DNA of 32,000 nt, taken from an uncultured Chloroflexia bacterium. Its GTDB lineage: Bacteria > Chloroflexota > Ktedonobacteria > Ktedonobacterales > JADMIN01. Of this stretch, positions 2,299 through 24,020 are shown piece after piece; position 1 is the first letter of the stretch; every line of letters begins with the position of its first letter. The position numbers and the translations under genes are program-made. The stretch spans positions 600,001 through 632,000 of the forward strand of contig CAVRAI010000003.1 in NCBI GenBank assembly GCA_963718915.1. Reading direction: 5' to 3'. Under the pieces are notes generated by a model. The model made no database searches, was not told the DNA's origin, and worked only from the letters and a program-made list of their open reading frames with translations.

Positions 2299-3198
2299 TT
2301 GGCGCGGGCGCCGCCAATGCCACGCCACAGGCGCACGCCGCGCCAGCGCTATACGTGGGTCAACTTCGATGGGCAGTGGTTCTGCCGGAGTTGGAGCGCC
2401 TCCGTTCCAACCGTGAAAGTGATCCTGCCGGGGCTGGCCGCCAGCGCGGGCATGTCAGGCATGGGCCAGGCTGCCTGGGACTACGATCTCGCGGACGGAC
2501 GGGCCTCCAATGTCACCGGGCAGACGCTGACACAATGCACCACTCGCTGGCATGTCGACGCCTCGATGCGCCTGCTCTCCGATGATGACAACTGGGCGCC
2601 AAATCCCAATGGCGAATGGCCGATTGCCAGCGATCTGCTGGCCTTCGAGCAGACCACCCATCAGCACGTGCGGACGGTGAGCGTCCTGAAGCCTGTGGTG
2701 AAGCACAAGACGGTCGTCAGAGCAACGGGAATGGGTAGCGCTCACACGACAACGACCTTCACTCAGGGTACGACCGGTAGCTCCGCGCCCAGTGGCGGCT
2801 ACAACCCCTGGGCGCCCGTGCCGGGCCATCCCACCCACAGCCTTAGAGACTTCGGGGGCGATCCCTATGCCAGCGCCTACGGCGTCTGCACGTGGTACGC
2901 ATGGTATCGCCATCAGAGCGAGCCGCTGATGAAGCTCGGCGTCTCACACACCTGGCCAGCCAACGCGCCGAAGTATGGCCTCTCGGTCGGCAGCCAGCCT
3001 GCCGTCGGCGCGACAGTGATCTTCCAGCCGGGCGTCGAAGGCGCGGGCGGCACCGGGCACGCCGGACATGTTGAGGCGGTGCTTGGCGGTGGCTGGTTCA
3101 TCATCTCTGAGATGAACTTCTACTGGAACGGCGGCGGCTTTGGCAAAGTGGACTACCGTTACGTCTACGTCCACTCTGGCGTCAGCTTTATCTACTAA
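2299..3198 (+). CDS. CHAP-domain peptidoglycan hydrolase (amidase/endopeptidase); N-terminus appears frameshifted
   Basis: C-terminal ...GVCTWYAWYRHQ...GATVIFQPGVEGAGGTGHAGHVEAV...ISEMNFYWNGGG... shows the Cys...His CHAP pattern. The signal peptide lies in another frame upstream (see finding). Confidence 0.8.
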   Translation: MARAPPMPRHRRTPRQRYTWVNFDGQWFCRSWSASVPTVKVILPGLAASAGMSGMGQAAWDYDLADGRASNVTGQTLTQCTTRWHVDASMRLLSDDDNWAPNPNGEWPIASDLLAFEQTTHQHVRTVSVLKPVVKHKTVVRATGMGSAHTTTTFTQGTTGSSAPSGGYNPWAPVPGHPTHSLRDFGGDPYASAYGVCTWYAWYRHQSEPLMKLGVSHTWPANAPKYGLSVGSQPAVGATVIFQPGVEGAGGTGHAGHVEAVLGGGWFIISEMNFYWNGGGFGKVDYRYVYVHSGVSFIY

Positions 3199-3429: not shown

Positions 3430-4407
3430 ATGCGCGCGGATCGCTTACTCTCGATTCTGCTGCTGCTCCAGGCGCATCGCCAGATGACGGCGGGCGAGCT
3501 GGCGCGGCGGCTGGAGGTATCGGAGCGCACCATCCACCGCGACATGGTGGCGCTTGGCATCGCGGGCATCCCCGTCATCGCGGAGCGCGGTACCGGCGGC
3601 GGCTGGCGGCTGCTGGAGGAGTATCGCACCAACCTGACCGGCATGAACACCGCCGAGATTCAGGCGCTCTTTCTGACTCGTCCTTCGCGGCTGATGGCCG
3701 ATCTGGGGATGGAGCAGGCGTCGGACGCGGCGCTTATCAAGCTGCTGGCGGCGCTGCCCGCGATCTCGCGCCAGAACGCGGAGGATATCCGCCAGCGCAT
3801 CCACATCGATGTGGCGGGCTGGGGCCAGCGCGACGATGCTGTGCCACTGCTGCCGATCATCCAGCAGGCCGTCTGGCAACAACGTCGGCTGCGCTTCACC
3901 TATGGCTACGACGGGGAGGGCGCGGGCGAGCGGCTGGGCGATCCGCTGGGGCTGGTGGCGAAGGGCAGCGTCTGGTACATGATCGTCGCGATAGATGGCC
4001 AACCGCGTACCTACCGCGTCTCGCGCGTGCGCAGCGCTGAGTTGTTGGACGATCTCTTCGAGCGCCCACCGGGCTTTGATCTGGCGGCCCACTGGGAGGA
4101 GTCCTCGGCGCGTTTCAGCGAGCGCATTCCCCGTTTTCCGGCGACGTTGCGTGTGGAGGCTGGCGCGTTGAGCGCCGTGCGCGCCGGTGGCCGCTATACG
4201 CGGATCGCGCGTGAAGATCCGCCCGACGCCGATGGCTGGGCATGCGTGATGGTGCTCTTCGAGGATGACCACAGCGCCCGCGAGTTCATCCTGAGCTATG
4301 GGCCACGGGTCGAGGTGATCGAGCCAGCGACGTTACGCGCCGCCGTCCTCAGTGCCGCGCGGGAGACGGTCGCGCGATATGAGCGGAGGGACGAGGAGAC
4401 GCCATGA
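3430..4407 (+). CDS. YafY-family transcriptional regulator (N-terminal HTH + WYL domain + C-terminal extension)
   Basis: MRADRLLSILLLLQAHRQMTAGELARRLEVSERTIHRDMVAL... is a YafY-type HTH. ...LVAKGSVWYMIVAIDGQPRTYRVSRV... is the WYL core. Start moved to ATG 3430 inside ORF 3394..4407. Confidence 0.85.
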   Translation: MRADRLLSILLLLQAHRQMTAGELARRLEVSERTIHRDMVALGIAGIPVIAERGTGGGWRLLEEYRTNLTGMNTAEIQALFLTRPSRLMADLGMEQASDAALIKLLAALPAISRQNAEDIRQRIHIDVAGWGQRDDAVPLLPIIQQAVWQQRRLRFTYGYDGEGAGERLGDPLGLVAKGSVWYMIVAIDGQPRTYRVSRVRSAELLDDLFERPPGFDLAAHWEESSARFSERIPRFPATLRVEAGALSAVRAGGRYTRIAREDPPDADGWACVMVLFEDDHSAREFILSYGPRVEVIEPATLRAAVLSAARETVARYERRDEETP

Positions 4408-5558
4408 GATCGATCACGTGGGAAGCGGCCTGCCAGCGACGACTTGCCCGCCAGTGTCTGCTCGCGCCCGCGCCATCGGCCCGGCTGGTCGAGACGGTTC
4501 GCGCCGTCGGCGGCATCCAGGCGCAGATTCTCTCCGCCGCCGAGCTTGCCATTGGCGCGCGCGTGGCCGATATCACCCGGCAGGACGTGCAGACGGCGCT
4601 CTGGGAGCAGCACGCGCTGGTCAAGACCTACGGCCCGCGCGGGACGCTTCACCTGCTCCCCGCGGATGAACTGCCGCTCTGGATGGCGGCGCTGCAAGCC
4701 GCCGAGGCGCTCGGTGGATCGCCCTGGTATCAGCATGCTGGGCTGGCGCGGTCGCAGGCGGACGACCTCCTCAACGCCATCGGAGATGCGCTCGATGGCC
4801 GCTGTCTCACCCGCAAAGAACTCGCCGACGCGGTGACCAGCCAGGTGGGGGAGTGGGCGCGGGAGCGGTTGCTCTCCGCCTGGGGTGAGTTGCTCGCTCC
4901 AGCCGCGCTTGCCGGGAAGCTCTGTTTCGGCGCGGGCACGGGGAGCCAGGTGAGCTTTGTCCGGGCGGACCAGTGGATCGGCCACTGGGAGCAGCATGAT
5001 CCCCAGGCGGCGCTCGTCGAACTCTGCCGCCGCTACATCGCGACGTATGGTCCGGCTACACACCAGGATATCGCGCACTGGTTCCGGCTCAAACCCGATC
5101 AGGCCCGCGCGCTGATGGAGTCGCTTGCCGCCGAACTGGAAGAAGTCGATTTTCTCGGACGGCGCGCCTGGCTGCTGGCGAGTGACGCGCGAGACGACCA
5201 GCAAGAGGCTGGCGCATCCGCACCTGGCGCGCTCTGGCTGCTCCCACAATACGACTGCTACCTGCTTGGCTGTGGTCCTCGCGAGCGTATCGTGCCCGAG
5301 GTGGCGCGCCCGCGCGTGAACACGTATGGACGCGGGCGTTTCGAGAGCGCCACGGGACTGCCGGTGCTGCTCATCGACGGGGCCGTCGCCGGGATGTGGG
5401 AGCGGCGCAAGCAAGGGAAAGGGAACGAGTTGCGGGTAGAATTGTTCAAAGAGCTCACCGCCCGGCAGCACGAGCAGCTTGAGGCTGAGGCCGCGTGTAT
5501 CGGCGCGTTTCTTGGCGTCAACCTGTCGCTCTCGCTCGGCGTCCTCGGCGCTTCATGA
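4404..5558 (+). CDS. winged-helix (HTH_42) AlkZ/YcaQ-like DNA glycosylase family protein
   Basis: N-terminus ...WEAACQRRLARQCL...VRAVGGIQAQILSAAELAIGARV...LVKTYGPRGTLHLLP... resembles the crosslink-repair glycosylase family. Q39-A40-Q41 fits the Q-hydrophobic-Q motif. Start overlaps the WYL gene stop (ATGA 4404-4407). Confidence 0.7.
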   Translation: MRSITWEAACQRRLARQCLLAPAPSARLVETVRAVGGIQAQILSAAELAIGARVADITRQDVQTALWEQHALVKTYGPRGTLHLLPADELPLWMAALQAAEALGGSPWYQHAGLARSQADDLLNAIGDALDGRCLTRKELADAVTSQVGEWARERLLSAWGELLAPAALAGKLCFGAGTGSQVSFVRADQWIGHWEQHDPQAALVELCRRYIATYGPATHQDIAHWFRLKPDQARALMESLAAELEEVDFLGRRAWLLASDARDDQQEAGASAPGALWLLPQYDCYLLGCGPRERIVPEVARPRVNTYGRGRFESATGLPVLLIDGAVAGMWERRKQGKGNELRVELFKELTARQHEQLEAEAACIGAFLGVNLSLSLGVLGAS

Positions 5559-6059: not shown

Positions 6060-6266
6060 GCTGGTTCGTTTGATTTGAATGGGTATGAATGGGGTGAGCC
6101 GGAGGATGGCGCCCTGGCTTCCTGAGAAGGGGAGGCTGGGGCGCTGTTGTGTTTTTGGGGGGCTGTGGCGGGGTGGAAGCGGCAGCGGTCAGTGTGGGGC
6201 CTTTGGGCACGGGAGCGCGGGGGCGGGGGCGCTCAACCCCTTCGGGAGAGCGGGGAGGCAGAAATC

Positions 6267-6758
6267 ATGGGGATTGATATGGATAACGAGCCAGGTGACA
6301 ATCTGGACGAACTTGAGCATAGCCGCGAGGAGCGGGCGTTCACACTCTATTGCCAGGGGATGCGCGTCGCCGAGATCGCGGTGACGCTCGCCGTCAGCGA
6401 GACGACCATCCGCCGCTGGCTGCGCGCCCGGCTGGAGACGCTTGCGCGGGAGGAGCGCGCCGAACGGGCCGAGCAGCTCTTGCGCGCCATCGAGAGCCAG
6501 CGTTCGATTGCCAGCGCCGCCTGGCGAGCTTACGAGCAGGTGCGCAACGACGACGAGCCAGATCGTCACGAGGGCGCGCGCTACCTCTCGATTGCCCTCG
6601 CCGCCCAGCGCGAGGTGGCGCGGTTACAGGGACTCTACTACCGCATCGGACGCGAGCCAGCGCCAGTGGACATCACAGTGACACGTCGCCCCGAGGACAC
6701 AGCCGCGCCAGAGCAGCCTTCCGAGAACGCCAATGGTGAGGCGCGCAAGCAGCCATGA
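6267..6758 (+). CDS. phage terminase small subunit-like HTH protein
   Basis: Start ATG 6267, preceded by GGGGAGG 8 nt upstream. HTH-like ...FTLYCQGMRVAEIAVTLAVSETTIRRWL.... Acidic N-terminus. Stop overlaps the terminase large subunit start (ATGA). The call rests mainly on position and architecture. Confidence 0.6.
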   Translation: MGIDMDNEPGDNLDELEHSREERAFTLYCQGMRVAEIAVTLAVSETTIRRWLRARLETLAREERAERAEQLLRAIESQRSIASAAWRAYEQVRNDDEPDRHEGARYLSIALAAQREVARLQGLYYRIGREPAPVDITVTRRPEDTAAPEQPSENANGEARKQP

Positions 6759-8044
6759 GCCAGTCAGATACGCCTGAGACACCGGGGATAATATGGACGC
6801 TCAATCCGGCGCAGTGGGACTTCGTGCATTGCGCGAGCCGCTTCAGCTTCTACGTCGGCGGGCTGGGCGCGGGCAAGACGACGGCGGGCGCGATGCGGGC
6901 GATCTTGCGCGCCGTCGAATATCCAGGCTCGCTCGGCGTCATCGGCGCGCCAACCTATCCGATGCTGCGCGACGCCACTGCCCGCACATTCTTCGCGCTG
7001 CTGCCACCCTCCCTGATCGCCCGCTACAACAAGACCGAAGGCCATCTCATCCTGCGCAATGGCAGCGAGATCCTCTTCCGCTCGCTCGATGCGCCAGATA
7101 GACTGCGCGGTCTCAATCTCGCCTGGTTCTGGCTGGATGAAGCGCCGCTCTGTGGCTACTATGCCTGGCAGGTGCTCAAAGGGCGGCTGCGCCAGCGCGG
7201 GTATGCCACGGCGGGCTGGGCGACGGGCACGCCAAAGGGGCGCGACGGCTTCGCCCGCGACTTCGAGCTAGCTCAGCGACCCTCCCACGCGCTCTTCCGC
7301 GCCTCCACCTGGACCAACGCGCACAATCTGCCGCCAGACTATATCAGCGAGCTGGGCTATAGCGGCGCGTTCGCGAAGCAGGAGATCGAGGGGCTGTTCG
7401 TCGCCTTCGAGGGGCTGGTCTATACGCTGGACGCAAGCGCGAACGGGCATCTGGCCGAGCCACCGGAGCGCGACCGCTGGCGGCGGGTCATCGGCGGCGT
7501 GGACTGGGGCTACACCAATCCCTCGGCGGCGACTGTCTTCGCACTGGATGGCGATGGTAGCGTCTGGCAGGTGGACGAGTTCTATCAGCGTCGCGCCGGG
7601 CTGGAAGAGACGCTATTGCCCGCGCTGCTGGATCTGACCCGGCGCTATGGTGTCGAGACGTGGTACTGTGGGCCGGATGAGCCGGAGCATATCGACGCGC
7701 TTGCCGCCGCGCTGGCGCGCGAGGGGCTGGCGTCACGGGCGCAACGAGCGGATAACAGTGTGCGCGCGGGCATCCAGACGGTGACGAGCCTGCTGGCACG
7801 CCGCCCCGATGGAAACTATGGGCTGCATATCGCGCCGCGCTGCGTCCACACGATTGCCGAGTACGGCAGCTATCAGTACGCCACCCGCGCCAGCGAGGGC
7901 CGCGATCCCTCGGAGCAGCCGCTCAAACAGAACGATCACGCGCTTGACGCCACCCGCTACGCGCTGCACACCGCGCTGGGCCGCGCCCGCGCCACCACAG
8001 CCTATCTGGACGCGATGCAACGGCGAGGCGGGGAGGGTACTTGA
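6755..8044 (+). CDS. terL: phage terminase large subunit (ATPase + nuclease), apparently intact
   Basis: Walker A GGLGAGKT, Walker B LAWFWLDEA, and RNase H-like nuclease motifs (VIGGVDWGYTNPSA..., ...NDHALDATRYAL). Confidence 0.9.
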   Translation: MSQSDTPETPGIIWTLNPAQWDFVHCASRFSFYVGGLGAGKTTAGAMRAILRAVEYPGSLGVIGAPTYPMLRDATARTFFALLPPSLIARYNKTEGHLILRNGSEILFRSLDAPDRLRGLNLAWFWLDEAPLCGYYAWQVLKGRLRQRGYATAGWATGTPKGRDGFARDFELAQRPSHALFRASTWTNAHNLPPDYISELGYSGAFAKQEIEGLFVAFEGLVYTLDASANGHLAEPPERDRWRRVIGGVDWGYTNPSAATVFALDGDGSVWQVDEFYQRRAGLEETLLPALLDLTRRYGVETWYCGPDEPEHIDALAAALAREGLASRAQRADNSVRAGIQTVTSLLARRPDGNYGLHIAPRCVHTIAEYGSYQYATRASEGRDPSEQPLKQNDHALDATRYALHTALGRARATTAYLDAMQRRGGEGT

Positions 8045-8065: not shown

Positions 8066-8569
8066 CTAATCCCGGTCGGTTGACGCCCTGTTAGGGAGTG
8101 CAAGGGCGTCTTCCAACGCGCTCAGTGGCGCTGGCAGAGGGCCGCGCGTCCAGAGCACAATCCCATCGCGCGCTACGTTCGCAATGAACGTCGAATCCCA
8201 CTCCTGCAACGCGCGCGTGGCAAACATCACCTGCACCTCGCGCGGAGCATCGAGATGCAAATTCCGCGCCAGCCCGACGGTATGGGTAATATCGAGGCCG
8301 CGCGGGAGATACACAGGGTCTTCATCAGTATCGAAGACAGCAAGCAGGTCAACATCGCTCGGCTGCGGATCGCTCAATGGGCGCTCGGTATGGCGCGCAA
8401 CCGAGCCGAACAGCACGATGGCAAGCAAATCAGGATAGCGCTGCGCAAGTGTCGCGATAATATCCCGCACCAGCGCGCTCGACTGCGCTTCCAGCCACGG
8501 CGGAAGCGCTATGTTATCCAGATCACCTGCCGACTTGCTTATTGTTTCAGATATTACGTTGTCGCCCAT
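8066..8569 (-). CDS. nucleotidyltransferase (MNT-type) domain protein
   Basis: LFGSVARHTERPLSDPQPSDVDLLAVF matches the G-S...D-x-D minimal nucleotidyltransferase motif. Overlaps the upstream small gene by 16 nt. Confidence 0.8.
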   Translation of the reverse strand: MGDNVISETISKSAGDLDNIALPPWLEAQSSALVRDIIATLAQRYPDLLAIVLFGSVARHTERPLSDPQPSDVDLLAVFDTDEDPVYLPRGLDITHTVGLARNLHLDAPREVQVMFATRALQEWDSTFIANVARDGIVLWTRGPLPAPLSALEDALALPNRASTDRD

Positions 8570-10830: not shown

Positions 10831-11182
10831 GCTTCACTTACCACCAATGGCGCCCTTCGCTTCTCCTGTCCCCGCGTATCTACAAAAGTCCGTCAGCCGC
10901 TCGTAAACCACATCCCACCCGCACGGCATAGCCTATCTGGGTAGCCGCGTGTATACCTCAACGATCCCGCTACGCTTCTTGTCTAACGCCATTGCGCCCG
11001 ACTGGATTTCGCGCTCGCTTGTCGCGAAACTCAGCCACTCTTGGTCATACTCCTCTGTACAGGGTGGATGCGATTGGGAAGCAGGGAGGGATGCCGTGGC
11101 AGACCAGCACCAGCACGAGCGCGAGCGCGGACGCGAGACATCCGCCGGAGCAGAGCCGGATACCCGGTGGAGAACGTGGGGG

Positions 11183-12652
11183 ATGGAGCGGGAAGCGGAT
11201 TCATCGGCGGCCAGACGGCGCATGCGGGCGTCGAACACGCCGGGTGGCGCATCCACTGGCTCCACTGGCTCCACCGGCTCCCCTGGTTCGTGGCCTACCA
11301 ACCTCATCCCACGAGTGCGTCCCGACGAACACGGGCCGGTGAGCCAGCCGCGACGCTCCACCGCGCCATGGCTCGCGAATATACCCCGCCTCACGAGCGA
11401 TACCGAGACACCCATCAGCAGGCCGCGCCAGACGAATGGCGGACTGCGGGCCGCGTCGGCGGCGCCCGAAGCGCCCTATGCGCCGACGACGAAGCATCGC
11501 GCATCCGCGCCACGCATCCGCGCCACAGGCTCGATGGACACGATGGATACGCTGGGCACGATGGACGACACACTGCCGCCAGACACAATCATCATGCCCA
11601 CGCGGCCCAACGATGACCCCGACTGGTTCGGCGGCTCCAGCAGCCAGGCGCGCCGACGGCGGCCATCCACCGCGCGGCCAGTGCGCCCGGAAGATACCAC
11701 ACTGGTGACACGCCAGACGATGATCTTGAATGCGCTTGAAGCCGTGATCGAGGATGCGCGTCTCGCCGCCGATCAGGCGCCCACCGTCTACCTGCCGACC
11801 GATATGGCGGTTGTGGACGCCGACCCGACGTCACGCATGCCTGTTACCGTCGTACCCGCGGGCAAGCTCGCTCCGACGCCGGCCTGGCTCCAGCCGCGCC
11901 GACGTGGAAGACGCAGCCTGGTCGCGGGATTCGTCGTCTGCCTGATGACGCTGGCCCTCGTCGCCGGCGTTCTCGTGCAGGTCAATCCCCTCGCCGCGAC
12001 ATCACTCCCCTTTGGGCTGCTAGGGGCGCAGACCGCCAGCAATAACACGACAGGCGATCCGAGCGGGCCATGGGATACGCAGGAAGGCGCGGTGCTTGGC
12101 CTCGGCGGCGGCGCTGGCCCTGGAGTCAAAGCGCCCGGAAGCGCCGGACTGCCCGCGGGGAAACCATCGGGCAACAGCGGCGCACCAACTGGCGCCTCGT
12201 CGCCATCCGCGAGTAGTGGCATATCGCCCGCGCCGGTCCGTCCCTGGCCGCCCAGGTGGGCCTATATGTATGTCCCTGGCCATCCGTCCTTCAAGATGAA
12301 TCGCCCGGCGAATGGCTACTACTGGTGGGCGTTCGGCCAATGCACCTGGTGGGCGCAATACAAGCGTCAGGGTGAGAACCTGCGCCATATGGGCAACGCG
12401 CGCTACTGGGCGGCGGGCGCGGCGTCGCGCGGCTACCGGATTGGGCGTACGCCACGCGCCGGGGCGACGGTCGTCTTCCAGCCGGGTGTCGAAGGCGCGG
12501 GTGGCGCGGGCCACGTCGCCCACGTCGAGAAGGTGTATCCTGGCGGCTGGTTCCTCGTCTCGGAGATGAATTTCTACTGGAACGGCGGTGGCTGGGGACG
12601 GGTGAGCTATCGCTTCGCCTACGTCCGCTCCGGCGTCAGCTTCATCTATTGA
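11183..12652 (+). CDS. membrane-anchored CHAP-domain peptidoglycan hydrolase (paralog of 2299..3198); start uncertain
   Basis: Maximal ORF is 10949..12652. G/C-rich third positions become convincing around ATG 11183. Disordered P/R/T-rich N-terminus, TM helix SLVAGFVVCLMTLALVAGVLVQV, Pro/Gly/Ser linker. CHAP domain ...GQCTWWAQYKRQ...GATVVFQPGVEGAGGAGHVAHVEKV...SEMNFYWNGGGWG...SGVSFIY. Confidence 0.8.
   Translation: MEREADSSAARRRMRASNTPGGASTGSTGSTGSPGSWPTNLIPRVRPDEHGPVSQPRRSTAPWLANIPRLTSDTETPISRPRQTNGGLRAASAAPEAPYAPTTKHRASAPRIRATGSMDTMDTLGTMDDTLPPDTIIMPTRPNDDPDWFGGSSSQARRRRPSTARPVRPEDTTLVTRQTMILNALEAVIEDARLAADQAPTVYLPTDMAVVDADPTSRMPVTVVPAGKLAPTPAWLQPRRRGRRSLVAGFVVCLMTLALVAGVLVQVNPLAATSLPFGLLGAQTASNNTTGDPSGPWDTQEGAVLGLGGGAGPGVKAPGSAGLPAGKPSGNSGAPTGASSPSASSGISPAPVRPWPPRWAYMYVPGHPSFKMNRPANGYYWWAFGQCTWWAQYKRQGENLRHMGNARYWAAGAASRGYRIGRTPRAGATVVFQPGVEGAGGAGHVAHVEKVYPGGWFLVSEMNFYWNGGGWGRVSYRFAYVRSGVSFIY
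11252..11287 (+). repeat. 4 x 9-bp in-frame tandem repeat (encodes STG-STG-STG-SPG)
   Basis: tccactggc tccactggc tccaccggc tcccctggt, read directly. Confidence 0.8.
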
Positions 12653-12884: not shown

Positions 12885-14021
12885 ATGAGCGCAGATACAT
12901 CTTCAACCGACGCCGCGACGCCGCAACTCAAACGCACCCCGCTCTACGATGAGCATCGCGCGCTGGGAGCGCGTCTCGTCGAGTTCAGCGGTTGGGAGAT
13001 GCCGGTTCAATATGGTGGCATCCTCGCCGAGCATCGCGCCGTCCGCGAACACGCGGGCATCTTCGATGTTAGCCACATGGGCGAATTCCAGATCGAGGGG
13101 CCGGGTGCGCTCGACTTCTTGCAGGGATTGGTACCCAACAACGTCGCCCGGTTGACCGATGGACAGGCGCTCTACACCCAGATATGCGACGAACAGGGCG
13201 GCACGCTGGACGATCTGACGATCTACCGCTTTGGCGACGAGCGCTATATGGCCGTGGTCAACGCGGGCACGATGGAGAGCGACTGGGCCTGGTTCACGCG
13301 GCAGGCCGCCGGACGCGCTGACGTCACGCTCACGAACACATCCGATGAGACAGGGCTGCTTGCGCTACAAGGTCCGCGCGCCCGCGATATCCTGAGTACT
13401 CTGACCGAAACCGACCTTGACGCCATTGTCTACTACCATTTCGCCGAAGGAACCATCGCAGGCGTCTCCTGTCTCATCTTGCGTACTGGCTACACGGGCG
13501 AAGATGGCTTCGAGTTGTGCTGTCCCGCGAGCGGCGTTGTGGCGCTCTGGCGGGCGTTGCTGGCGGCTGGCGCCCCGGAGGGTTTGCTTCCCGCCGGACT
13601 TGGCGCGCGCGATACGCTGCGGCTGGAGGCGGGCTTCTGCCTCTACGGCCACGAACTGAACGAGCAGATCACGCCGCTGGAGGCGGGCCTCGGCTGGTCA
13701 GTCAAGCTGGAGAAGGGACACGATTTTATCGGGCGCGAGGCGTTGCTGGCGCAGAAAGAGCAGGGGTTGCCACGCAAGCGTGTAGGCATCGAGCTACGTG
13801 ACCGGGGCGTGCCTCGCGCTGGATATCCCATCTTGCGCGAAGGTGTGGCCATTGGTGAACTGACCAGCGGCGCCGTCGGCCCCACCATCAACAAATCGAT
13901 TGGCATGGGCTACGTCCCGCCAGAGCATGCCGCCCCAGGCACGGAGATCGCCATCGAGATTCGTGGCAAGGCGATTCCAGCAGTCATCGTCGCGCTGCCG
14001 TTTTACAAGCGCGCGAACTAG
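12885..14021 (+). CDS. gcvT: glycine cleavage system T protein (aminomethyltransferase)
   Basis: ...LKRTPLYDEHRALGARLVEFSGWEMPVQYGGILAEHRAVREHAGIFDVSHMGEF... is full-length and typical of GcvT. Confidence 0.95.
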   Translation: MSADTSSTDAATPQLKRTPLYDEHRALGARLVEFSGWEMPVQYGGILAEHRAVREHAGIFDVSHMGEFQIEGPGALDFLQGLVPNNVARLTDGQALYTQICDEQGGTLDDLTIYRFGDERYMAVVNAGTMESDWAWFTRQAAGRADVTLTNTSDETGLLALQGPRARDILSTLTETDLDAIVYYHFAEGTIAGVSCLILRTGYTGEDGFELCCPASGVVALWRALLAAGAPEGLLPAGLGARDTLRLEAGFCLYGHELNEQITPLEAGLGWSVKLEKGHDFIGREALLAQKEQGLPRKRVGIELRDRGVPRAGYPILREGVAIGELTSGAVGPTINKSIGMGYVPPEHAAPGTEIAIEIRGKAIPAVIVALPFYKRAN

Positions 14022-14078
14022 CGTTTCACTCTTTGTGATTCAAGGCAGGCGCGCGGGCGCCAGAGGAGCAGAAGCAAG

Positions 14079-14486
14079 ATGGCCAAGACGGATCAGCCAG
14101 ACGATTTGAAGTACGCCGAATCGCACGAGTGGGTGCGAGTAGAAGGCGACGAGGCGACCATTGGCATCTCAGACTACGCCCAGGATGAACTGGGCGACGT
14201 CGTCTTCCTCGATCTGCCGTGGGATGACGCGAATAACCGCGACTTCAAGGCAGGCGAGCATTTTGGCGATATCGAATCGGTCAAGGCGACCTCGGAGCTA
14301 TTCATCCCGGTGAGCGGCACATTGATCGCCGTCAACGGCGCGTTGCAGAGCACGCCGGAGCTGGTGAACAGCGAGCCTTACGGCGACGGCTGGATGTTGC
14401 GTGTGCGGCTCTCCGATCCCACCGAACTCGACAAACTGATGGACGCCGCCGCCTACACTGAGTTTCTCAAAACGGCAGGCCATTAG
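14079..14486 (+). CDS. gcvH: glycine cleavage system H protein (lipoyl carrier)
   Basis: ...YAESHEWVRVEGDEATIGISDYAQDELGDVVF...IESVKATSELFIPVSG... with the lipoyl-lysine motif ESVKA. Confidence 0.95.
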   Translation: MAKTDQPDDLKYAESHEWVRVEGDEATIGISDYAQDELGDVVFLDLPWDDANNRDFKAGEHFGDIESVKATSELFIPVSGTLIAVNGALQSTPELVNSEPYGDGWMLRVRLSDPTELDKLMDAAAYTEFLKTAGH

Positions 14487-14536
14487 CGCGGGCGGTTAAA
14501 GCTGCGCCTGAACGGCCTCGCTAACGCTCGGCCACA

Positions 14537-14656
14537 AAACCTGCCTGCGCAGGTTTCTCCCAGATGCGCCAGGCGCGCATTGCGGTGGGCTACTTCTGGA
14601 GAGTCCGCGCAGGCGGACTTCGTGGCCGCAGGCCCTTCAGGCGCGACTTCAGTCGC
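14537..14656 (+). repeat. cluster of short GC-rich hairpins in the gcvH-gcvPA spacer
   Basis: AAACCTGC/GCAGGTTT (14537-56), AGTCCGC/GCGGACT (14602-19), GGCC/GGCC (14624-34), GCGAC/GTCGC with a TTCA loop (14643-56). The CTTCAG-type loops resemble REP copies A and B. Confidence 0.55.
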
Positions 14657-14800
14657 CAGCCGCTTCCTTGCCCGTTGGTCAGGGCGATATGGAGCTACAG
14701 CGTATAATGCTACTCAGGAGTTCATTGGCGACCTCCTGAGAGAAACCACTACGTCCCAGCGATGCCGATCATCGTGGGCTGGCGAGGAATCGAACACGAT

Positions 14801-16156
14801 ATGAGCTATGTGCCAAACACCTCCGCCGAGCAGCAAGAGATGCTGCGCGCGGTTGGAGCCTCCTCCATCGAGGATCTACTTACGCCCATCCCAGAGGCGG
14901 TGCGCCTCAAACGGCCACTGAATCTCCCCCCATCGCTGGCCGAGCCTGATCTGCGGCGGCTGATGCAGGGCATGGCCGAACAGAACGCCGACCTTGACCA
15001 CTACATCTCCTTCTTGGGGGCAGGCACATACGATCACTTCGTGCCGAGTCTGGTCGCCGCGCTGGGAAAACGAAGCGAATTTCTCACCTCGTACACGCCC
15101 TATCAGCCAGAGGTCAGCCAGGGGATGCTCCAGGCGATCTACGAGTACCAGACGATGGTCTGCCAGCTTACCAATATGGACGTCGCCAACGCCTCGCTCT
15201 ACGACGGCTCGACGGCGGTGGTGGAGGGCGCGCTGATGGCCGTTGGCCCGTCGGGGCGCGGCGAGGTGATCGTCTCGCGGGCGCTCGATCCGCAGTATCG
15301 CGCCACGTTGCAGACCTACGCCAACGCGCGCGGCTTTACCATGCGCGAGATTGGCCTGGACAATGGTATTACCTCGGTGGCTGAGCTTGAGGCGGCGATG
15401 ACCCCCAACACCAGAGCGGTCATCGTCCAGCAGCCGAACTTCCTCGGCGCGCTCGAAGATGTGCGCGGCATCGAGAAGGTGACGCACACGGGCAAGGCGG
15501 CATTCATCGTCGCCATCACCGAGCCTGCCTCGCTCGGCGTGCTGGCCGCGCCGGGAGACTACGGCGCCGATATCGTCGCGGCGGAGGGGCTGAGCCTGGG
15601 CAATCCGATGGGGTATGGCGGCCCCGCGCTGGGACTCTTCGCCGCGCGCAAAGACTACCTGCGCAAGCTGCCGGGGCGGCTGGCGGGCAAGACACTCGAT
15701 TCGCGCGGCCAAGAGGCGTATGTGCTGACACTGCAAACCCGCGAGCAGCAGATACGCCGCGAACGCGCCACCTCGAATATCTGCACCAATCAATCGCTGC
15801 TGGCGGTCGCCGCGACCATCTACCTCGCCGCGCTGGGCAAGCAGGGTTTCCGCGAACTGGGCGAGCAGTGCCTGCAACGCGCCCACTACGCGCAGGAGCG
15901 CATCTGCGCGCTACCAGGCTTCGAGCCGCTCTTCACTCGCCCGTTCTTCGACGAGTTCGCGGTGCGCTGCCCGATACCTGTGGAGCAACTCAACGCCGGG
16001 CTGCGCGATGAGGGCATCAGCGGCGGTTACGATCTGAGTCGCGACTACCCCGAACTGGGCAATGCGGCGCTCTTCTGTGTGACGGAGACCCGCACGCGCG
16101 AGGATATTGAGGCGCTGGTGGCGGCGATGGAAGAAGTGGCAGGCGAGAACCGATGA
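14801..16156 (+). CDS. gcvPA: glycine dehydrogenase (aminomethyl-transferring), subunit 1
   Basis: [19 protein letters not shown]...[22 protein letters not shown].... Start moved to ATG 14801 inside ORF 14762..16156. Confidence 0.95.
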
Positions 16157-17640
16157 GCACTGAGAAACTGATTTTCGAGATGGGCGCGCCCGGACGCCGC
16201 GCCGCCCTGCTGCCCGCGATGGATGTGCCGACGAAGCCGCTGGAGCAGCTTGTGCCGCGGGATATGCTGCGCGCGGAGCCAGCGCCACTGCCAGAGGTGA
16301 GTGAGATCGAGGTGGTGCGCCACTTCACCCATCTCTCGCAGCGCAACTTTGGCGTGGATACCGGCTTCTACCCGCTGGGGTCGTGCACGATGAAGTACAA
16401 CCCCAAGGTCAACGAGGAGATGGCGGGCATGCCCGGCTTCGCGCGGATCCATCCGCTGGAGCATGAGAGCATGACCCAGGGCGCGATCCAGTTGCTCTAC
16501 GAACTGGAGGGCTACCTGGCCGAGATCGCCGGGATGGAGCGGGTCACGTTGCAGCCAGCGGCGGGCGCGCACGGCGAGATCACCGGCCTGATGATTATCA
16601 AAGCGTATCACGTCCATCGCGGCGAGGCGCACCGCGATATCGTGCTCATCCCCGACGGCGCGCATGGCACCAATCCGGCGAGCGCGACGCTGGCCGACTA
16701 TCGCACCGTCGAACTGAAGTCGGACGCGCGCGGCGGCGTGGATGTGGAGCATCTCAAGCAGGTGCTCGCCCTGCACGAGGGCAAGATCGCCGCGCTAATG
16801 ATGACCAACCCCAACACGCTCGGCGTCTTCGACGAGAACATCGTCGAGATCGCGAAACTGGTGCATGACGTGGGCGGCCAGCTCTACTACGACGGCGCCA
16901 ACGCCAACGCGATTCTGGGCATCACGCGGCCCGGCGATATGGGCTTCGACGTCGTTCACCTGAACCTGCACAAGACCGCCAGCACGCCGCATGGTGGTGG
17001 TGGGCCGGGCGCTGGCCCCATCGGTGTCGCGAAGCATCTCGTGCCGTTCCTGCCGGGACCGCTCCCCGCGAAGGGACGCCAGGGCTACTTCTGGGAGGAC
17101 GCTGGCACGCTCTCGATTGGTCGGGTGCGCGCCCACGCGGGCAACTTCCTGGTGCTGGTGCGCGCCTACACCTACATCCGCAGCAACGGGCCGGACGGGC
17201 TGCGCCACGTTAGCAATAGCGCGGTGCTGAACGCCAACTACGTCATGCGGGCGTTGCAGGAATACTACGACCTGCCATTCGACCGCACCTGCATGCACGA
17301 GTTCGTCTTCTCGGCCAACCGCCAGAAGGCGCTGGGCGTGCGCGCGCTGGACATCTCGAAGCGGCTGCTGGACTTCGGCATTCACCCGCCGACGAACTAT
17401 TTCCCGCTGATCGTTCCTGAGGCGCTGATGATCGAGCCGACCGAGACGGAGACGAAGGAGACGCTCGACGAGTTCATCGCCATCATGCGCCAGATCGCCG
17501 AGGAGGCCGAGCGCCAGCCGGGCCTGGTGCTGGAGGCGCCCCACGTCACCGTCGTCGGGCGGCTGGATGAGGCGCTGGCGGCACGCAAGCCCAATCTGCG
17601 CTGGCAATCCGAAGCGGAACCCGAGGCGGCGAAGGCATAG
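16153..17640 (+). CDS. gcvPB: glycine dehydrogenase (aminomethyl-transferring), subunit 2
   Basis: ...[13 protein letters not shown]...[21 protein letters not shown]..., the PLP-lysine region. ATGA overlap with gcvPA. Confidence 0.95.
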
Positions 17641-17721: not shown

Positions 17722-18216
17722 ATGAGTAAGCGGATGAGCAAACAGGAACTCTACTATAAGGAATATCCTCTGCTTCTCAGCCAGTTAAAACACCTGGTCA
17801 TCCTGGCGCGTGTTCGCGACCCCAACGTAGCGTTCATCACGCTGTTTGGCTCAGCGGCCCGGCTTGAGCCGCATAAAAATAGCGACGCCGATGTCTTGAT
17901 ACTCGTTCACGACCAGACGCAGTTCTATGCCGCGCAGCCAACACCCGGAGTTGCCCTGCTCTGGATGGCCTATCAGGAGGAAGCGGTCAGGAGCGGAGAT
18001 GACGAACGGCTGAGCAACTGGCCTATAACGGCGGTTGTCTCTGATGCCGCCGCTTCCGATCTCGACCACGACTTCCTGAATAACGTCGCCCGTGATGGTG
18101 TGGAATTGTATCGCCAGTCTGGTTATATCCCACCGGAAGCACTCGCCCACCTGATGTCCTGGGAACGGTGGCGACGCCGCATCAACAAACGGTTGGCAAT
18201 TAGCATCGTGAATTAG
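17722..18216 (+). CDS. nucleotidyltransferase (MNT-type) domain protein, solo paralog of 8066..8569
   Basis: LFGSAARLEPHKNSDADVLILV (G-S...D-x-D) and a C-terminal ...DFLNNVARDGVELY, matching ...STFIANVARDGIVLW of the other copy. Confidence 0.7.
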   Translation: MSKRMSKQELYYKEYPLLLSQLKHLVILARVRDPNVAFITLFGSAARLEPHKNSDADVLILVHDQTQFYAAQPTPGVALLWMAYQEEAVRSGDDERLSNWPITAVVSDAAASDLDHDFLNNVARDGVELYRQSGYIPPEALAHLMSWERWRRRINKRLAISIVN

Positions 18217-22059: not shown

Positions 22060-22140
22060 CGGCTTGCCGCTGCCGAATAGGATGAGATAGACTGCGCAGT
22101 GGAGTGCCAGACTCAATAGCAAATTCAATCTGACGAGAAC

Positions 22141-22216
22141 GGCGTCCCAGTGCAGGTTCGAATCCTGCCCCCACCACCATTCACGGTGGGGTAGCCCAAC
22201 TGGCAGAGGCAGCGTC
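22141..22216 (+). ncRNA. circularly permuted tRNA-like module, 76 nt
   Basis: Order on the + strand: GGCGU | CCCAGU | T-arm GCAGG-TTCGAAT-CCTGC (22152-68) | CCCCACC (22169-75) | A | CCA (22177-79) | TTCAC | GGTGGGG (22185-91) | TA | D-arm GCC-CAACTGGCAGA-GGC (22194-210) | A | GCGTC (22212-16). The last segment pairs with 22141-45. Confidence 0.7.
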
Positions 22217-22397
22217 GCGACTCACCCAACGCTCAAGCTATCACTCCAAACTTGAGTATTCGTCGTCGAACACCAAATCGCTCGCCAGGAGCCGTGAATC
22301 GTTGGATGCGGGCGCATCTCCCGCTCGGTCCTCCAAGCCATGGACCGATAGTTTAATAGTAGAACACGACGATGTAAAGTCTGAGCGCCCGGCATAA

Positions 22398-22442
22398 TAA
22401 ACGTGTTGGTGTGCGCAAATGGGCGACACAACGAGGTCCAGG
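22398..22442 (+). repeat. 45-bp perfect direct repeat, left copy (att-like)
   Basis: TAAACGTGTTGGTGTGCGCAAATGGGCGACACAACGAGGTCCAGG, identical to 23946-23990. Confidence 0.9.
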
Positions 22443-22473
22443 AAAGGGTATTTCCTGGACCTCACCTTTTATT
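22433..22473 (+). terminator. intrinsic terminator (RNA locus, copy 1)
   Basis: GAGGTCCAGGAAA (22433-45), loop GGGTA, TTTCCTGGACCTC (22451-63), then ACCTTTTATT. Confidence 0.8.
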
Positions 22474-22548
22474 GAAGCCTCCGAATCACCTTTAGGCATG
22501 TGCTACGCATTACTGATACCCTCGTCTTCACTACCATAGGCTGTAGAC

Positions 22549-22577
22549 TTTACACTGATGGCGCTTTTGTGTACAAT
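22549..22577 (+). promoter_or_regulatory. sigma-70-like promoter TTTACA-17 nt-TACAAT for the XRE gene
   Basis: -35 TTTACA 22549-54 and -10 TACAAT 22572-77, preceded by TGTG. Lies about 45 nt upstream of ATG 22621. Confidence 0.5.
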
Positions 22578-22620
22578 GGCAGTAGTGGATGATTGCTTTT
22601 GACTGGAACGGAATTCAACT

Positions 22621-22866
22621 ATGCCAACAGATCGCGGTGTGCCAGTGCCATACCTTCGAGAGTGGCGGCTACGGGTATTGCTCAAGCAGGAGGAGCTGGC
22701 CGAAACGGCTGGCGTATCACGGCCGACCATTCTGCGCGGAGAGCGTGGCGAAACATTGAGTATCGACAACATCCGCAAGATTGCTGTCGCGTTAAATATC
22801 ACTGTCGACCAGCTACGATTCGAGCTGCCAGAAGTGGCAGGCCGCCCCAAGAATGACCCACTATAG
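22621..22866 (+). CDS. XRE-family helix-turn-helix regulator
   Basis: ...LREWRLRVLLKQEELAETAGVSRPTILRGERGETLSIDNIRKIAVALNITVDQL... is an HTH_XRE pattern. Confidence 0.85.
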   Translation: MPTDRGVPVPYLREWRLRVLLKQEELAETAGVSRPTILRGERGETLSIDNIRKIAVALNITVDQLRFELPEVAGRPKNDPL

Positions 22867-22974
22867 CCGCTTGAACCAGGTGAGGAAGAACATCGCTTGC
22901 GTCGTACATCGTAGTCGGATCAATACAGGCAGCCACGACTATTGTGCTTGAGACGGTATCTGGAGGGCTAACTC

Positions 22975-23910
22975 ATGAGTACCAGCGATAACCAGAGCGA
23001 CCAGAGCGACCAGAGCGATAGCTTCAGTCTGGAAGAGTTCGATGCGCAGGCATCTGGCAGAATCCGACATATCATGTATAACGGAGAGCCGTGGTACTCC
23101 GTGATTGATGTCGTGGGAGTGCTCACCGATGCGCCCAAGCCACGCCAATATTGGTTTGACATGAAACGCAATGTTCAAAATGAAGGCTTCCGTGAACTGT
23201 CGGAAAAAATCCGACAGTTGAAAATGGAGGCGCCCGATGGGAAACAACGTCTGACCGACGCCGCCAACGAAGAAACACTTTTGCGCATCATCGAGAGCAT
23301 CCCCAGCCCCAAAGCCGAACCGTTCAAGCGCTGGTTGGCGCGTGTCGGCCACGAACGCCTGCGGGAAATGGAGAACCCCGAACTAGCCGCTGATCGCATG
23401 CGCGCGCAGTATCGTCGCCTCGGCTACAGCGATGAGTGGATCGACCGACGCTTGCAAGGCATTGTGGTGCGTGACGAGTTGACCAACGAATGGCGCGAGC
23501 GCGGCGCCAGGGAGGGCAAGGAGTTTGCGACGCTGACTGATACACTCCAGCAGGGTACGTTCGATCTCACCACCGCTGAGCACAAAGGCGTGAAGCATAT
23601 TGGGCAGCGGCAGAATCTCCGTGACTCAATGACGACGCTTGAACTCGCCTTGACGATTCTCGCCGAGGAAACCGCTAAGGAGTTGCACCAGGTGCATGAC
23701 AGCGAGGGCTTCGACGAGCTTCATCAAGACACGCAAGAGGCGGGAGATGTGGGTGGCGCTGCGCGGCGCGACATTGAGGCGCGCACCGGTCGCCCCGTCG
23801 TGAGTAGCGAAAACTACAAGGCACTCCGCCAGGGCAGACAGCGCGAACTGCAAAGCCCGCTGTTTCCATCAGGTGATGCGAACAACGGCGGAGGCGAGGG
23901 CAGCGAGTGA
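22975..23910 (+). CDS. Bro-N domain protein (prophage antirepressor / DinD-like)
   Basis: ...IRHIMYNGEPWYSVIDVVGVLTDAPKPRQYWFDMK...RIIESIPSPKAEPFKRWLARVGHERLRE...NLRDSMTTLEL... shows a Bro-N core followed by a conserved C-terminal region. The N-terminus holds an SDQ tandem repeat. Confidence 0.8.
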   Translation: MSTSDNQSDQSDQSDSFSLEEFDAQASGRIRHIMYNGEPWYSVIDVVGVLTDAPKPRQYWFDMKRNVQNEGFRELSEKIRQLKMEAPDGKQRLTDAANEETLLRIIESIPSPKAEPFKRWLARVGHERLREMENPELAADRMRAQYRRLGYSDEWIDRRLQGIVVRDELTNEWRERGAREGKEFATLTDTLQQGTFDLTTAEHKGVKHIGQRQNLRDSMTTLELALTILAEETAKELHQVHDSEGFDELHQDTQEAGDVGGAARRDIEARTGRPVVSSENYKALRQGRQRELQSPLFPSGDANNGGGEGSE

Positions 23911-23945
23911 TACCACGAATCGCCAGGCGCCAGAGCCGGACGGAG

Positions 23946-23990
23946 TAAACGTGTTGGTGTGCGCAAATGGGCGACACAACGAGGTCCAGG
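23946..23990 (+). repeat. 45-bp perfect direct repeat, right copy (att-like)
   Basis: Identical to 22398-22442. Sequence diverges immediately after, but still folds into a terminator hairpin. Confidence 0.9.
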
Positions 23991-24020
23991 GAAGGATACT
24001 CTCTGGATCTCACTTTTTCC
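23981..24020 (+). terminator. intrinsic terminator (copy 2, after the right direct repeat)
   Basis: GAGGTCCAGGGA (23981-92) pairs with TCTCTGGATCTC (24000-11): 12 bp including two G.U. Then ACTTTTTCC. Sits tail-to-tail with the ADH gene. Confidence 0.7.

Follow-up and report, generated by a model that had tools for sequence, protein, structure and literature searches.

Within a 32,000-nt stretch of contig CAVRAI010000003.1 (positions 600,001–632,000; hereafter the window), a high-GC bacterial chromosome whose best protein matches were in Ktedonobacterales (Chloroflexota), we analysed a non-coding RNA (ncRNA) locus of about 370 nt that follows a gene for a DUF7873 protein. A first-pass annotation had described one circularly permuted tRNA-like module (22141–22216) inside a terminator-ended non-coding locus. 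Every element listed for that module was recovered at its position, and a terminator scan found the 13-bp hairpin at 22433–63. A second permuted tRNA-like domain (TLD) at 22299–22372 (TLD2, the first being TLD1), UNA repeats with a 6-nt period and the upstream partner gene DUF7873 had been missed. Judged from its sequence and those of its relatives, the RNA is a genuine, independently transcribed-looking ncRNA gene, and its predicted fold is a scaffold displaying two circularly permuted TLDs. The occurrence of a TLD-bearing locus here is far beyond chance. The RNA family is widespread and absent from Rfam 15, and the comparative evidence gives high confidence that a functional structured RNA is linked to DUF7873. 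No description of this RNA, of DUF7873 or of their pairing was found in the literature searched or in Rfam 15.

Architecture of the RNA and support for its helices

Relatives comprised 80 genome loci retrieved through the DUF7873 protein (73–82% identity across phyla) and 80 loci from IMG/VR (DUF7873 protein identity 50–74%); individual loci are given by L numbers. The genome loci came from Chloroflexota, Actinomycetota, Cyanobacteria, Myxococcota, Deinococcota (Deinococcales), Armatimonadota and Acidobacteriota. We propose a DUF7873-associated double-TLD family, of which the window has helix P1, a UNA hexamer array, TLD1, nested helices, TLD2 and a 3′ hairpin (Table 1). The minimum free energy z-score of the ~370-nt RNA was −3.9. 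In both TLDs a loop caps the acceptor stem, and helices leading into the rest of the RNA take the place of the anticodon hairpin.

Table 1. Coordinates of the DUF7873 gene and of the elements of the RNA in the window
Feature	Position	Strand	Remarks
DUF7873 gene, 243 aa	21328–22059	+	Pfam PF25283, E 1e-116, full length
Putative promoter of the RNA	22064–22093	+	−35 TTGCCG 22064–69, −10 TAGACT 22088–93, spacer 18 nt
Whole structured ncRNA, ~370 nt	22097–22470	+	Conserved from just past the DUF7873 stop codon to the terminator
Helix P1	22101–06 (GGAGUG) with 22242–47 (CACUCC)	+	Encloses UNA repeats and TLD1
UNA repeat array, single-stranded	22108–22134	+	Four to five (C)UNA motifs, exact 6-nt spacing
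TLD1, permuted, short tRNA-Leu type	22140–22217	+
TLD1 anticodon-stem-like strand GGCGU	22141–45	+
TLD1 variable segment CCCAGU, 6 nt	22146–51	+
TLD1 T arm GCAGG/UUCGAAU/CCUGC	22152–68	+	Canonical
TLD1 acceptor 3′ strand CCCCACC	22169–75	+	Then A22176, CCA 22177–79
TLD1 linker UUCAC, 5 nt	22180–84	+
TLD1 acceptor 5′ strand GGUGGGG	22185–91	+	Perfectly complementary; then UA
TLD1 D arm	22194–22210	+	3-bp stem, GG-containing loop; then A22211, GCGUC 22212–16
Long-range helix around TLD2	22262–67 with 22422–27	+	Outermost of three nested helices (span 22262–22427)
Long-range helix around TLD2	22271–76 with 22406–11	+	Nested
Long-range helix around TLD2	22284–92 with 22385–93	+	Nested
TLD2, permuted, generic class-I type	22299–22372	+
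TLD2 stem	22299–304 with 22367–72	+
TLD2 T arm	22308–24	+
TLD2 acceptor	22325–31 with 22342–48	+	Closed by UCCAAGCCAU
TLD2 D arm	22351–65	+	D loop TAATAGTAG
3′ hairpin/terminator, 13 bp	22433–22470	+	Stem 22433–63, then ACC and U tract; terminator scan

Of the tRNA helices, TLD1 lacked only the anticodon hairpin; its permuted order was stem strand, CCCAGU, T arm, acceptor 3′ strand, A-CCA, loop, acceptor 5′ strand, UA, D arm, A and stem strand, with the acceptor closed by ACCAUUCAC. The anticodon-like stem covaried among relatives (CGGCGU/GCGUCG, CAACGG/CCGUUG, ACGGUA/UACCGU) at a fixed geometry, starting 1 nt past the D stem and with a variable loop of 5–6 nt ending in AGU. The discriminator was A in 29/30 sequences. 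At permissive settings, Rfam yielded two partial matches to the tRNA-like core of YrlA, at 22151–22210 (23.1 bits, E 0.023) and 22303–22366 (17.1 bits), and the second of these revealed TLD2. Its T arm and acceptor were 100% paired and covarying. The T loop of TLD2 was degenerate in the window (CGCAUCU) compared with UUCAAnU in most relatives, and its D loop, TAATAGTAG, turned out to be what had been taken for a triple in-frame stop.

The covariance model of the 5′ domain (R1) scored 137.7 bits in the window and 65–144 bits over 94 aligned loci, with lower scores in more divergent loci. RNAalifold predicted 68 pairs from 30 sequences of seven phyla, 55 of them with compensatory changes. Pairs were also counted on structures that we specified. 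In the 5′ domain (P1, T, acceptor and D helices), 96.7% of cells were paired in the 94 sequences, where slid controls reached approximately 48%, and both-side changes were seen in 18 of 21 pairs; this alignment was fitted to the model and so somewhat favours the structure, and a MAFFT alignment (A4) agrees with it. The corresponding values for the 3′ domain were 92.8% against approximately 40%, with both-side changes in 38 of 43 pairs. For both domains, the paired-cell and covariation scores lay above those of all 500 shuffles. The conservation and covariation in relatives that the first-pass annotation had asked for were present, and its refuting condition, a scar left by rearrangement of an ordinary tRNA gene, did not apply; the permuted order is kept in well over 100 loci.

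Individual helices fared differently in the comparison. P1 was 90–94% paired and covaried as GGAGCG/CGCUCC and GGAGUA/UACUCC; it is the core (22101–06/22242–47) of a longer flank helix proposed earlier, whose AUAGC/GCUAU extension was paired in only 32%. The outermost long-range helix (22262–67/22422–27) was 96.8% paired, with both-side changes in 4/6 pairs, and the next two were 98.1% (22271–76/22406–11, 6/6 pairs) and 78.7% paired (22284–92/22385–93, 9/9 pairs). These pairings displace a UCGUCGU/ACGACGA helix proposed earlier, since 22262–67 pairs with 22422–27 and 22367–72 with 22299–22304 instead, and a supposed bulged hairpin at 22405–32 resolved into the 3′ strands of two long-range helices. 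A possible pseudoknot between the first repeat (22111–16) and 22252–57 was 77% paired, its central pair failing in half of the sequences.

In the 94 sequences, the UNA array carried 1.5–2.0 bits every 6 nt (A12, U16, A18, U22, A24, U28, A30, U34 and A36) and 0.2–0.6 bits between these peaks, which corresponds to four UNA units plus a leading A. We propose that a protein with a repeated or oligomeric surface may bind along the array. At the 5′ side, the RNA has a putative promoter of its own (22064–22093), whose boxes, TTGC... and TAnnnT, occurred at the same place in Chloroflexota, cyanobacterial, myxobacterial and Armatimonadota rows of an alignment (A2); the Klebsiella phage FBKp24 has an annotated promoter at the equivalent position. 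At the other end, the stem of the 3′ hairpin covaried, and its loop and the trailing ACC were frequent among relatives. The hairpin is predicted to act as a terminator, and it looks like a tRNA minihelix end.

Likeness of TLD1 to short tRNA-Leu

The D arm of TLD1, UAGCCCAAnnGGnAGAGGC, was invariant in the family, and the acceptor sequence varied freely by covariation. Because of this free covariation, the resemblance of the acceptor to tRNA-Tyr, pointed out in the first-pass annotation, is specific to the window and coincidental; the conserved D arm is that of short tRNA-Leu. A scan of IMG/VR for the D-arm pattern yielded 118 tRNAs called by ARAGORN, 114 of them tRNA-Leu and four undetermined. 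The 114 tRNA-Leu were 73–79 nt long, had no long variable arm and bore six different Leu anticodons, and their consensus was that of TLD1 in the D arm UAGCCCAAnnGGnAGAGGC, the AGU-ending variable loop and the T loop GUUCGAAUC, with the discriminator A in common as well. In contrast, the D arm of the TLD2 type was spread over many class-I tRNA identities.

Since D arm, variable loop, T loop and discriminator agree, TLD1 corresponds to a tRNA-Leu body without the anticodon hairpin. By its sequence, it copies the short phage-type tRNA-Leu body, including all elbow tertiary nucleotides. It thus has the Leu-type D arm, A73 and the elbow nucleotides of a tRNA-Leu; it has no anticodon arm and no free 5′ or 3′ ends, and ARAGORN did not call it. 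It also differs from the short tRNA-Leu in its permuted halves and its loop-closed acceptor. TLD1 is a mimic and not a decoding tRNA. In the circularly permuted tRNA genes of Cyanidioschyzon merolae, too, the 3′ half precedes the 5′ half and a short linker connects the two at the acceptor end; the products of these genes mature via a circular intermediate to normal tRNAs with an anticodon loop (PMC3978253). The DUF7873-associated RNA differs in having no anticodon loop, the anticodon position running into the larger RNA.

Short tRNA-Leu genes formed a large family in the IMG/VR loci L169–L288. In nine Dactylosporangium loci (L024, L034, L035, L039, L049, L051 and L053–L055, around 2500–2950), a short tRNA-Leu(UAG) of normal topology was situated just upstream of DUF7873.

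Bacterial leucyl-tRNA synthetase (LeuRS) is not known to read the anticodon. This makes LeuRS a natural candidate partner of TLD1 and, from the sequence likeness, the leading candidate effector.

Linkage to DUF7873 and genomic setting

R1 placed the RNA directly 3′ of the DUF7873 gene in 75 of the 80 genome loci (76–144 bits). One further locus (L037) had a weak match (35.6 bits), and another (L002) was too short to judge. The RNA was in the same place in nearly all 80 IMG/VR loci; in L128 the order was swapped, with the RNA upstream of the DUF7873 gene and still adjoining it. Among cultured phages, it followed the DUF7873 gene in Arthrobacter phage Mimi (117.7 bits), Gordonia phage Ziko (72.6 bits), Klebsiella jumbo phage FBKp24 (41.6 bits) and Ralstonia phage RSL1 (32.0 bits), and the module was present in cultured phages of Arthrobacter, Gordonia, Rhodococcus, Klebsiella, Vibrio, Rhizobium and Ralstonia. 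An all-against-all clustering of the flanking open reading frames (ORFs) left DUF7873 as the sole conserved neighbour of the RNA, and a relative with 91% protein identity had only the DUF7873 gene and the RNA in common with the window. Because nothing else around the RNA was conserved, the two can be regarded as a two-component module. Variants of the arrangement included an insertion between gene and RNA that put the RNA approximately 2.4 kb past the gene (L064, L066), and tandem duplication of the RNA, with two copies in L005 (4531–4739 and 5143–5304) and matches at 3737, 4341 and 4543 in L101.

DUF7873 had 6913 homologues at 90% clustering, forming 2395 clusters at 50% identity. Its AF2 model (pLDDT 93) found no match at E ≤ 0.001 in a Foldseek search of PDB and BFVD; weak fold resemblances to Pur-alpha/PUR-repeat and to 3KDQ (E 0.2–0.8) are leads only. 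Sequence searches of PDB with the single sequence and with a profile gave nothing meaningful, comparison with PHROGs, NCBIfam and PADLOC gave no match, and longer DUF7873 proteins carried no informative fused domains.

In all six cultured phages inspected, tRNA genes were located within 4 kb of the DUF7873 gene, in five of them within approximately 1 kb and mostly in arrays, and an unannotated gap of 350–490 nt after the DUF7873 gene held the RNA. The flanks contained 267 tRNAs in 513 kb of IMG/VR sequence versus 12 in 509 kb of bacterial sequence. Some existing annotations overlapped the RNA. In the Klebsiella phage vB_KpM_FBKp24 (L163), an annotated 'tRNA-Sup-TTA' (4513–4597) is probably a mis-call, as it is built from the T arm and an acceptor strand of TLD2, and in Gordonia phage Ziko (L162, 4729–5197) the small ORFs gp125 and gp126 overlap the RNA and are probably not genes. 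Nine viral variants (L090, L092, L111, L115, L117, L126, L133, L136 and L138) had a third cloverleaf, of normal topology, right after TLD2 (around 4050–4240). Its 'anticodon' differed between homologous copies (GCU, UGU, AUG), so it is probably also a mimic and not a decoding tRNA.

The proposal that the locus had served as an insertion target held up. The 3′ end of the RNA is duplicated in an 87-nt direct repeat (22384–22470 and 23932–24018; 85% identical, with a 43-nt identical core) that brackets a 1548-bp segment (insert 22471–23931). The insert carries an HTH_3 gene (22621–22866) and a gene for a Bro-N protein (22975–23910) matching the candidate defence family PDC-S13, and no integrase is present. 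It looks like the product of a site-specific integration at the 3′ end of the RNA gene. The loop of the distal repeat copy is closer to the family consensus, for which reason this copy may be the displaced original RNA end.

Elsewhere in the window, phage-like genes far upstream (6147–8044, 2299–3198 and 10949–12652) encode small and large terminase subunits and two CHAP-domain proteins, suggesting a prophage remnant or mobile region. Two Pol-beta/MNT-type nucleotidyltransferase genes of a type known from HEPN-MNT toxin-antitoxin pairs (17722–18216, + strand; 8066–8569, − strand) were not conserved beside the module. A glycine cleavage operon (12885–17640) consists of gcvT, gcvH and gcvP, the last of them split; at the gathering threshold, Rfam showed no glycine riboswitch upstream of it.

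A possible tRNA-mimic ribonucleoprotein and its alternatives

We hold with moderate confidence that the module encodes a Y-RNA-like tRNA-mimic ribonucleoprotein, in which a DUF7873-bound scaffold would present processed tRNA-like ends to tRNA-handling enzymes. DUF7873 would bind the RNA, most plausibly at the 6-nt-spaced (C)UNA motifs, at the invariant D arm or at both, and the particle would be analogous to Ro60–Y RNA, with the TLDs as its effector-facing part. The closest known RNA is YrlA (RF02553; PMC4201824; bioRxiv 10.1101/312249), which has the same permuted TLD, consisting of T arm, loop-closed acceptor, D arm and helices replacing the anticodon hairpin, the same tertiary nucleotides including the A15–U48 Levitt pair, and a gene beside that of its protein partner. 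Chen et al. (2014, PMC4201824) showed that the YrlA of M. smegmatis, with an acceptor of 7 bp, is a substrate of RNase P and acquires CCA in vivo. Both acceptor stems of the DUF7873-associated RNA are likewise 7 bp long. ACCA was encoded after the acceptor in 12/30 TLD1 sequences and NCCA in 15/26 TLD2 sequences, compared with a chance of approximately 1.6% at a fixed site (our own estimate, 1 in 64), and the closing loops of the TLDs tolerated insertions of more than 100 nt. By analogy with the mycobacterial RNA, RNase P probably cuts 5′ of G22185 and G22342, an expectation in which our confidence is moderate. Trimming or repair would then give the 3′ sides CCA ends, leaving a base-paired RNA of several pieces. 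The particle may engage the tRNA-handling machinery, with LeuRS as the leading candidate for TLD1; confidence in any particular effector is low. Because the phage modules lie in tRNA arrays, the role is probably in a contest between phage and host over tRNA and translation.

Several observations weigh against this ribonucleoprotein reading. DUF7873 is mildly acidic (pI 5.7), and structure and profile searches revealed no recognisable RNA-binding or enzymatic fold in it. Four loci with full 3-kb flanks (the three Herpetosiphon loci L009–L011, and L007) have the DUF7873 gene and no RNA within 3 kb. The putative promoter is weak and below the threshold of a consensus scan, CCA is encoded in only 40–58% of sequences, and the elbow of TLD2 may not be tRNA-like in the window, as its T loop is degenerate. 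In bacterial chromosomes the module lies away from tRNA genes, and ARAGORN found none in the 32-kb window. The LeuRS idea draws on the identity to tRNA-Leu genes and on the general indifference of the enzyme to the anticodon.

A more far-reaching version, which we regard as doubtful, is that the module represents a third class of tRNA-mimic ribonucleoprotein beside tmRNA–SmpB and Y RNA–Ro60. Cut by RNase P and matured at its CCA ends, the RNA would form a base-paired particle of three pieces with two free acceptor ends. LeuRS would charge TLD1 with leucine or be sequestered by it, and the particle would act on the translation apparatus or as a decoy against tRNA-targeting defences. If true, this would account for the retention of the module within the tRNA arrays of phages whose hosts differ widely, and it would point to the unknown factor that, according to Wang et al. 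(2018, bioRxiv 10.1101/312249), probably binds the conserved D and T stems of YrlA.

It is unlikely that the pair is instead a toxin-antitoxin or abortive-infection system, in which a toxic DUF7873 would be restrained by the repeat RNA in a type III-like manner, with the TLDs as stabilisers or sensors. The module is indeed self-contained, with two components, no conserved neighbours and a context that shifts even between close relatives; phages carry it, and candidate defence genes are found close to it, including the PDC-S13 gene directly downstream in the window; and its RNA has short periodic repeats. However, the protein gene comes first and is followed by an RNA with its own putative promoter, the reverse of the type III order. 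The protein matched only DUF7873, with no PADLOC, Pfam nuclease or ToxN-like match and no resemblance to ToxN/AbiQ, and the module is embedded in phage tRNA arrays. The identity of 73–82% across phyla, moreover, is unusual for toxins.

Slightly less probable still is a true YrlA-family Y RNA with Ro60/Rsr encoded elsewhere and DUF7873 as an accessory or coincidental neighbour. The TLD topology is identical to that of YrlA, and the two partial YrlA matches were the sole Rfam hits with E < 1.5. They cover only positions 26–82 of the 114 of the model, that is, its tRNA-like part, and with 23.1 and 17.1 bits they remain well below the 69-bit gathering cut-off. At the gathering level, no Rfam 15 family was found in the RNA, and the window and 14 related loci gave only true tRNAs. 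By definition, YrlA has a Ro60/Rsr gene with a TROVE domain on its own strand, no more than approximately 4 kb away. The earlier remark that no rsr gene is nearby was borne out, as there was no TROVE domain among the 30 largest ORFs of the window, and tblastn with two Ro60 proteins found nothing in the window or in the 168 family loci (L001–L168), with positive controls found elsewhere. YrlA has a GNCGAAN0–1G motif in the Ro-binding region near its 5′ end, and in the DUF7873-associated RNA a GNCGAA motif is highly conserved (GUCGAA at 22265–70, GCCGAA in most relatives). There it is internal, between two long-range helices, and the G expected after it is a position of a covarying helix, present only where the A-U/G-C pair happens to be G-C. 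The ends of the RNA form no Ro-binding stem. Further differences from YrlA are that the strict partner is DUF7873 and not a TROVE protein, that two TLDs are joined in ~370 nt with P1, three long-range helices and the UNA array, and that the phage copies are embedded in tRNA arrays. Some Ro60-linked YrlA loci share the identical Leu-type D arm and a second domain of class-I type. Such Y RNAs were observed just upstream of TROVE/Ro60 in L216 (3535–3780) and L228 (4960–5330), as tandem permuted TLDs, one with a Leu-type and one with a class-I D arm, mirroring TLD1 and TLD2.

A two-piece (permuted) tmRNA or another tag-carrying ribosome-rescue RNA is very improbable. The first-pass annotation had named YrlA and two-piece tmRNA as the nearest relatives, neither fitting cleanly, and this held up. 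As in two-piece tmRNA, the tRNA-like halves are permuted (T arm, acceptor 3′ strand and an encoded CCA preceding the acceptor 5′ strand and D region), the segment between them varies and can be dispensed with, the gene of the protein partner lies directly upstream and the 3′ end of the RNA is an integration site. The gene for SmpB, smpB, likewise lies upstream of ssrA. On the other side, ARAGORN, the first check suggested earlier, returned no tRNA or tmRNA in the 32-kb window, and no tmRNA family appeared in the Rfam scan even at E ≤ 10. Position 3:70 is U:A in the window and was G:U in only 1/30 TLD1 and 3/26 TLD2 sequences. No conserved ORF that could provide a tag was found, indels downstream of TLD1 were not multiples of three, and the 'triple stop' belongs to the D loop of TLD2. 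The RNA also has two tRNA-like domains where tmRNA has one, and no tmRNA-type pseudoknots were detected. A classical tmRNA is refuted by the ARAGORN and Rfam nulls, the lack of G3:U70 conservation and the lack of a reading frame.

The least probable explanation, a rearrangement scar or pseudogene in which tRNA halves were joined by recombination, for example at an attachment site, without a function of their own, is refuted by the comparative data: integrative elements leave partial tRNA copies behind, and the locus was hit by an insertion flanked by 87-nt repeats, but only the last 87 nt were duplicated, with no tRNA-like domain among them, and the permuted order, both TLDs and the connecting helices are kept with compensatory changes in well over 100 bacterial and phage loci.

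The module is abundant, with 2395 clusters at 50% identity in at least seven bacterial phyla plus many phages. Its recognition has value for annotation, as shown by the probable mis-calls of 'tRNA-Sup-TTA' in FBKp24 and of gp125 and gp126 in Ziko, and the 3′ end of the RNA would be an integration site not known to genomic-island finders. The locus shows the permuted tRNA-like module of Y RNAs in renewed use, with another protein as its partner. The tie of this module to one tRNA identity, short tRNA-Leu, makes LeuRS or another tRNA-Leu-specific factor a candidate for the effector of such domains.

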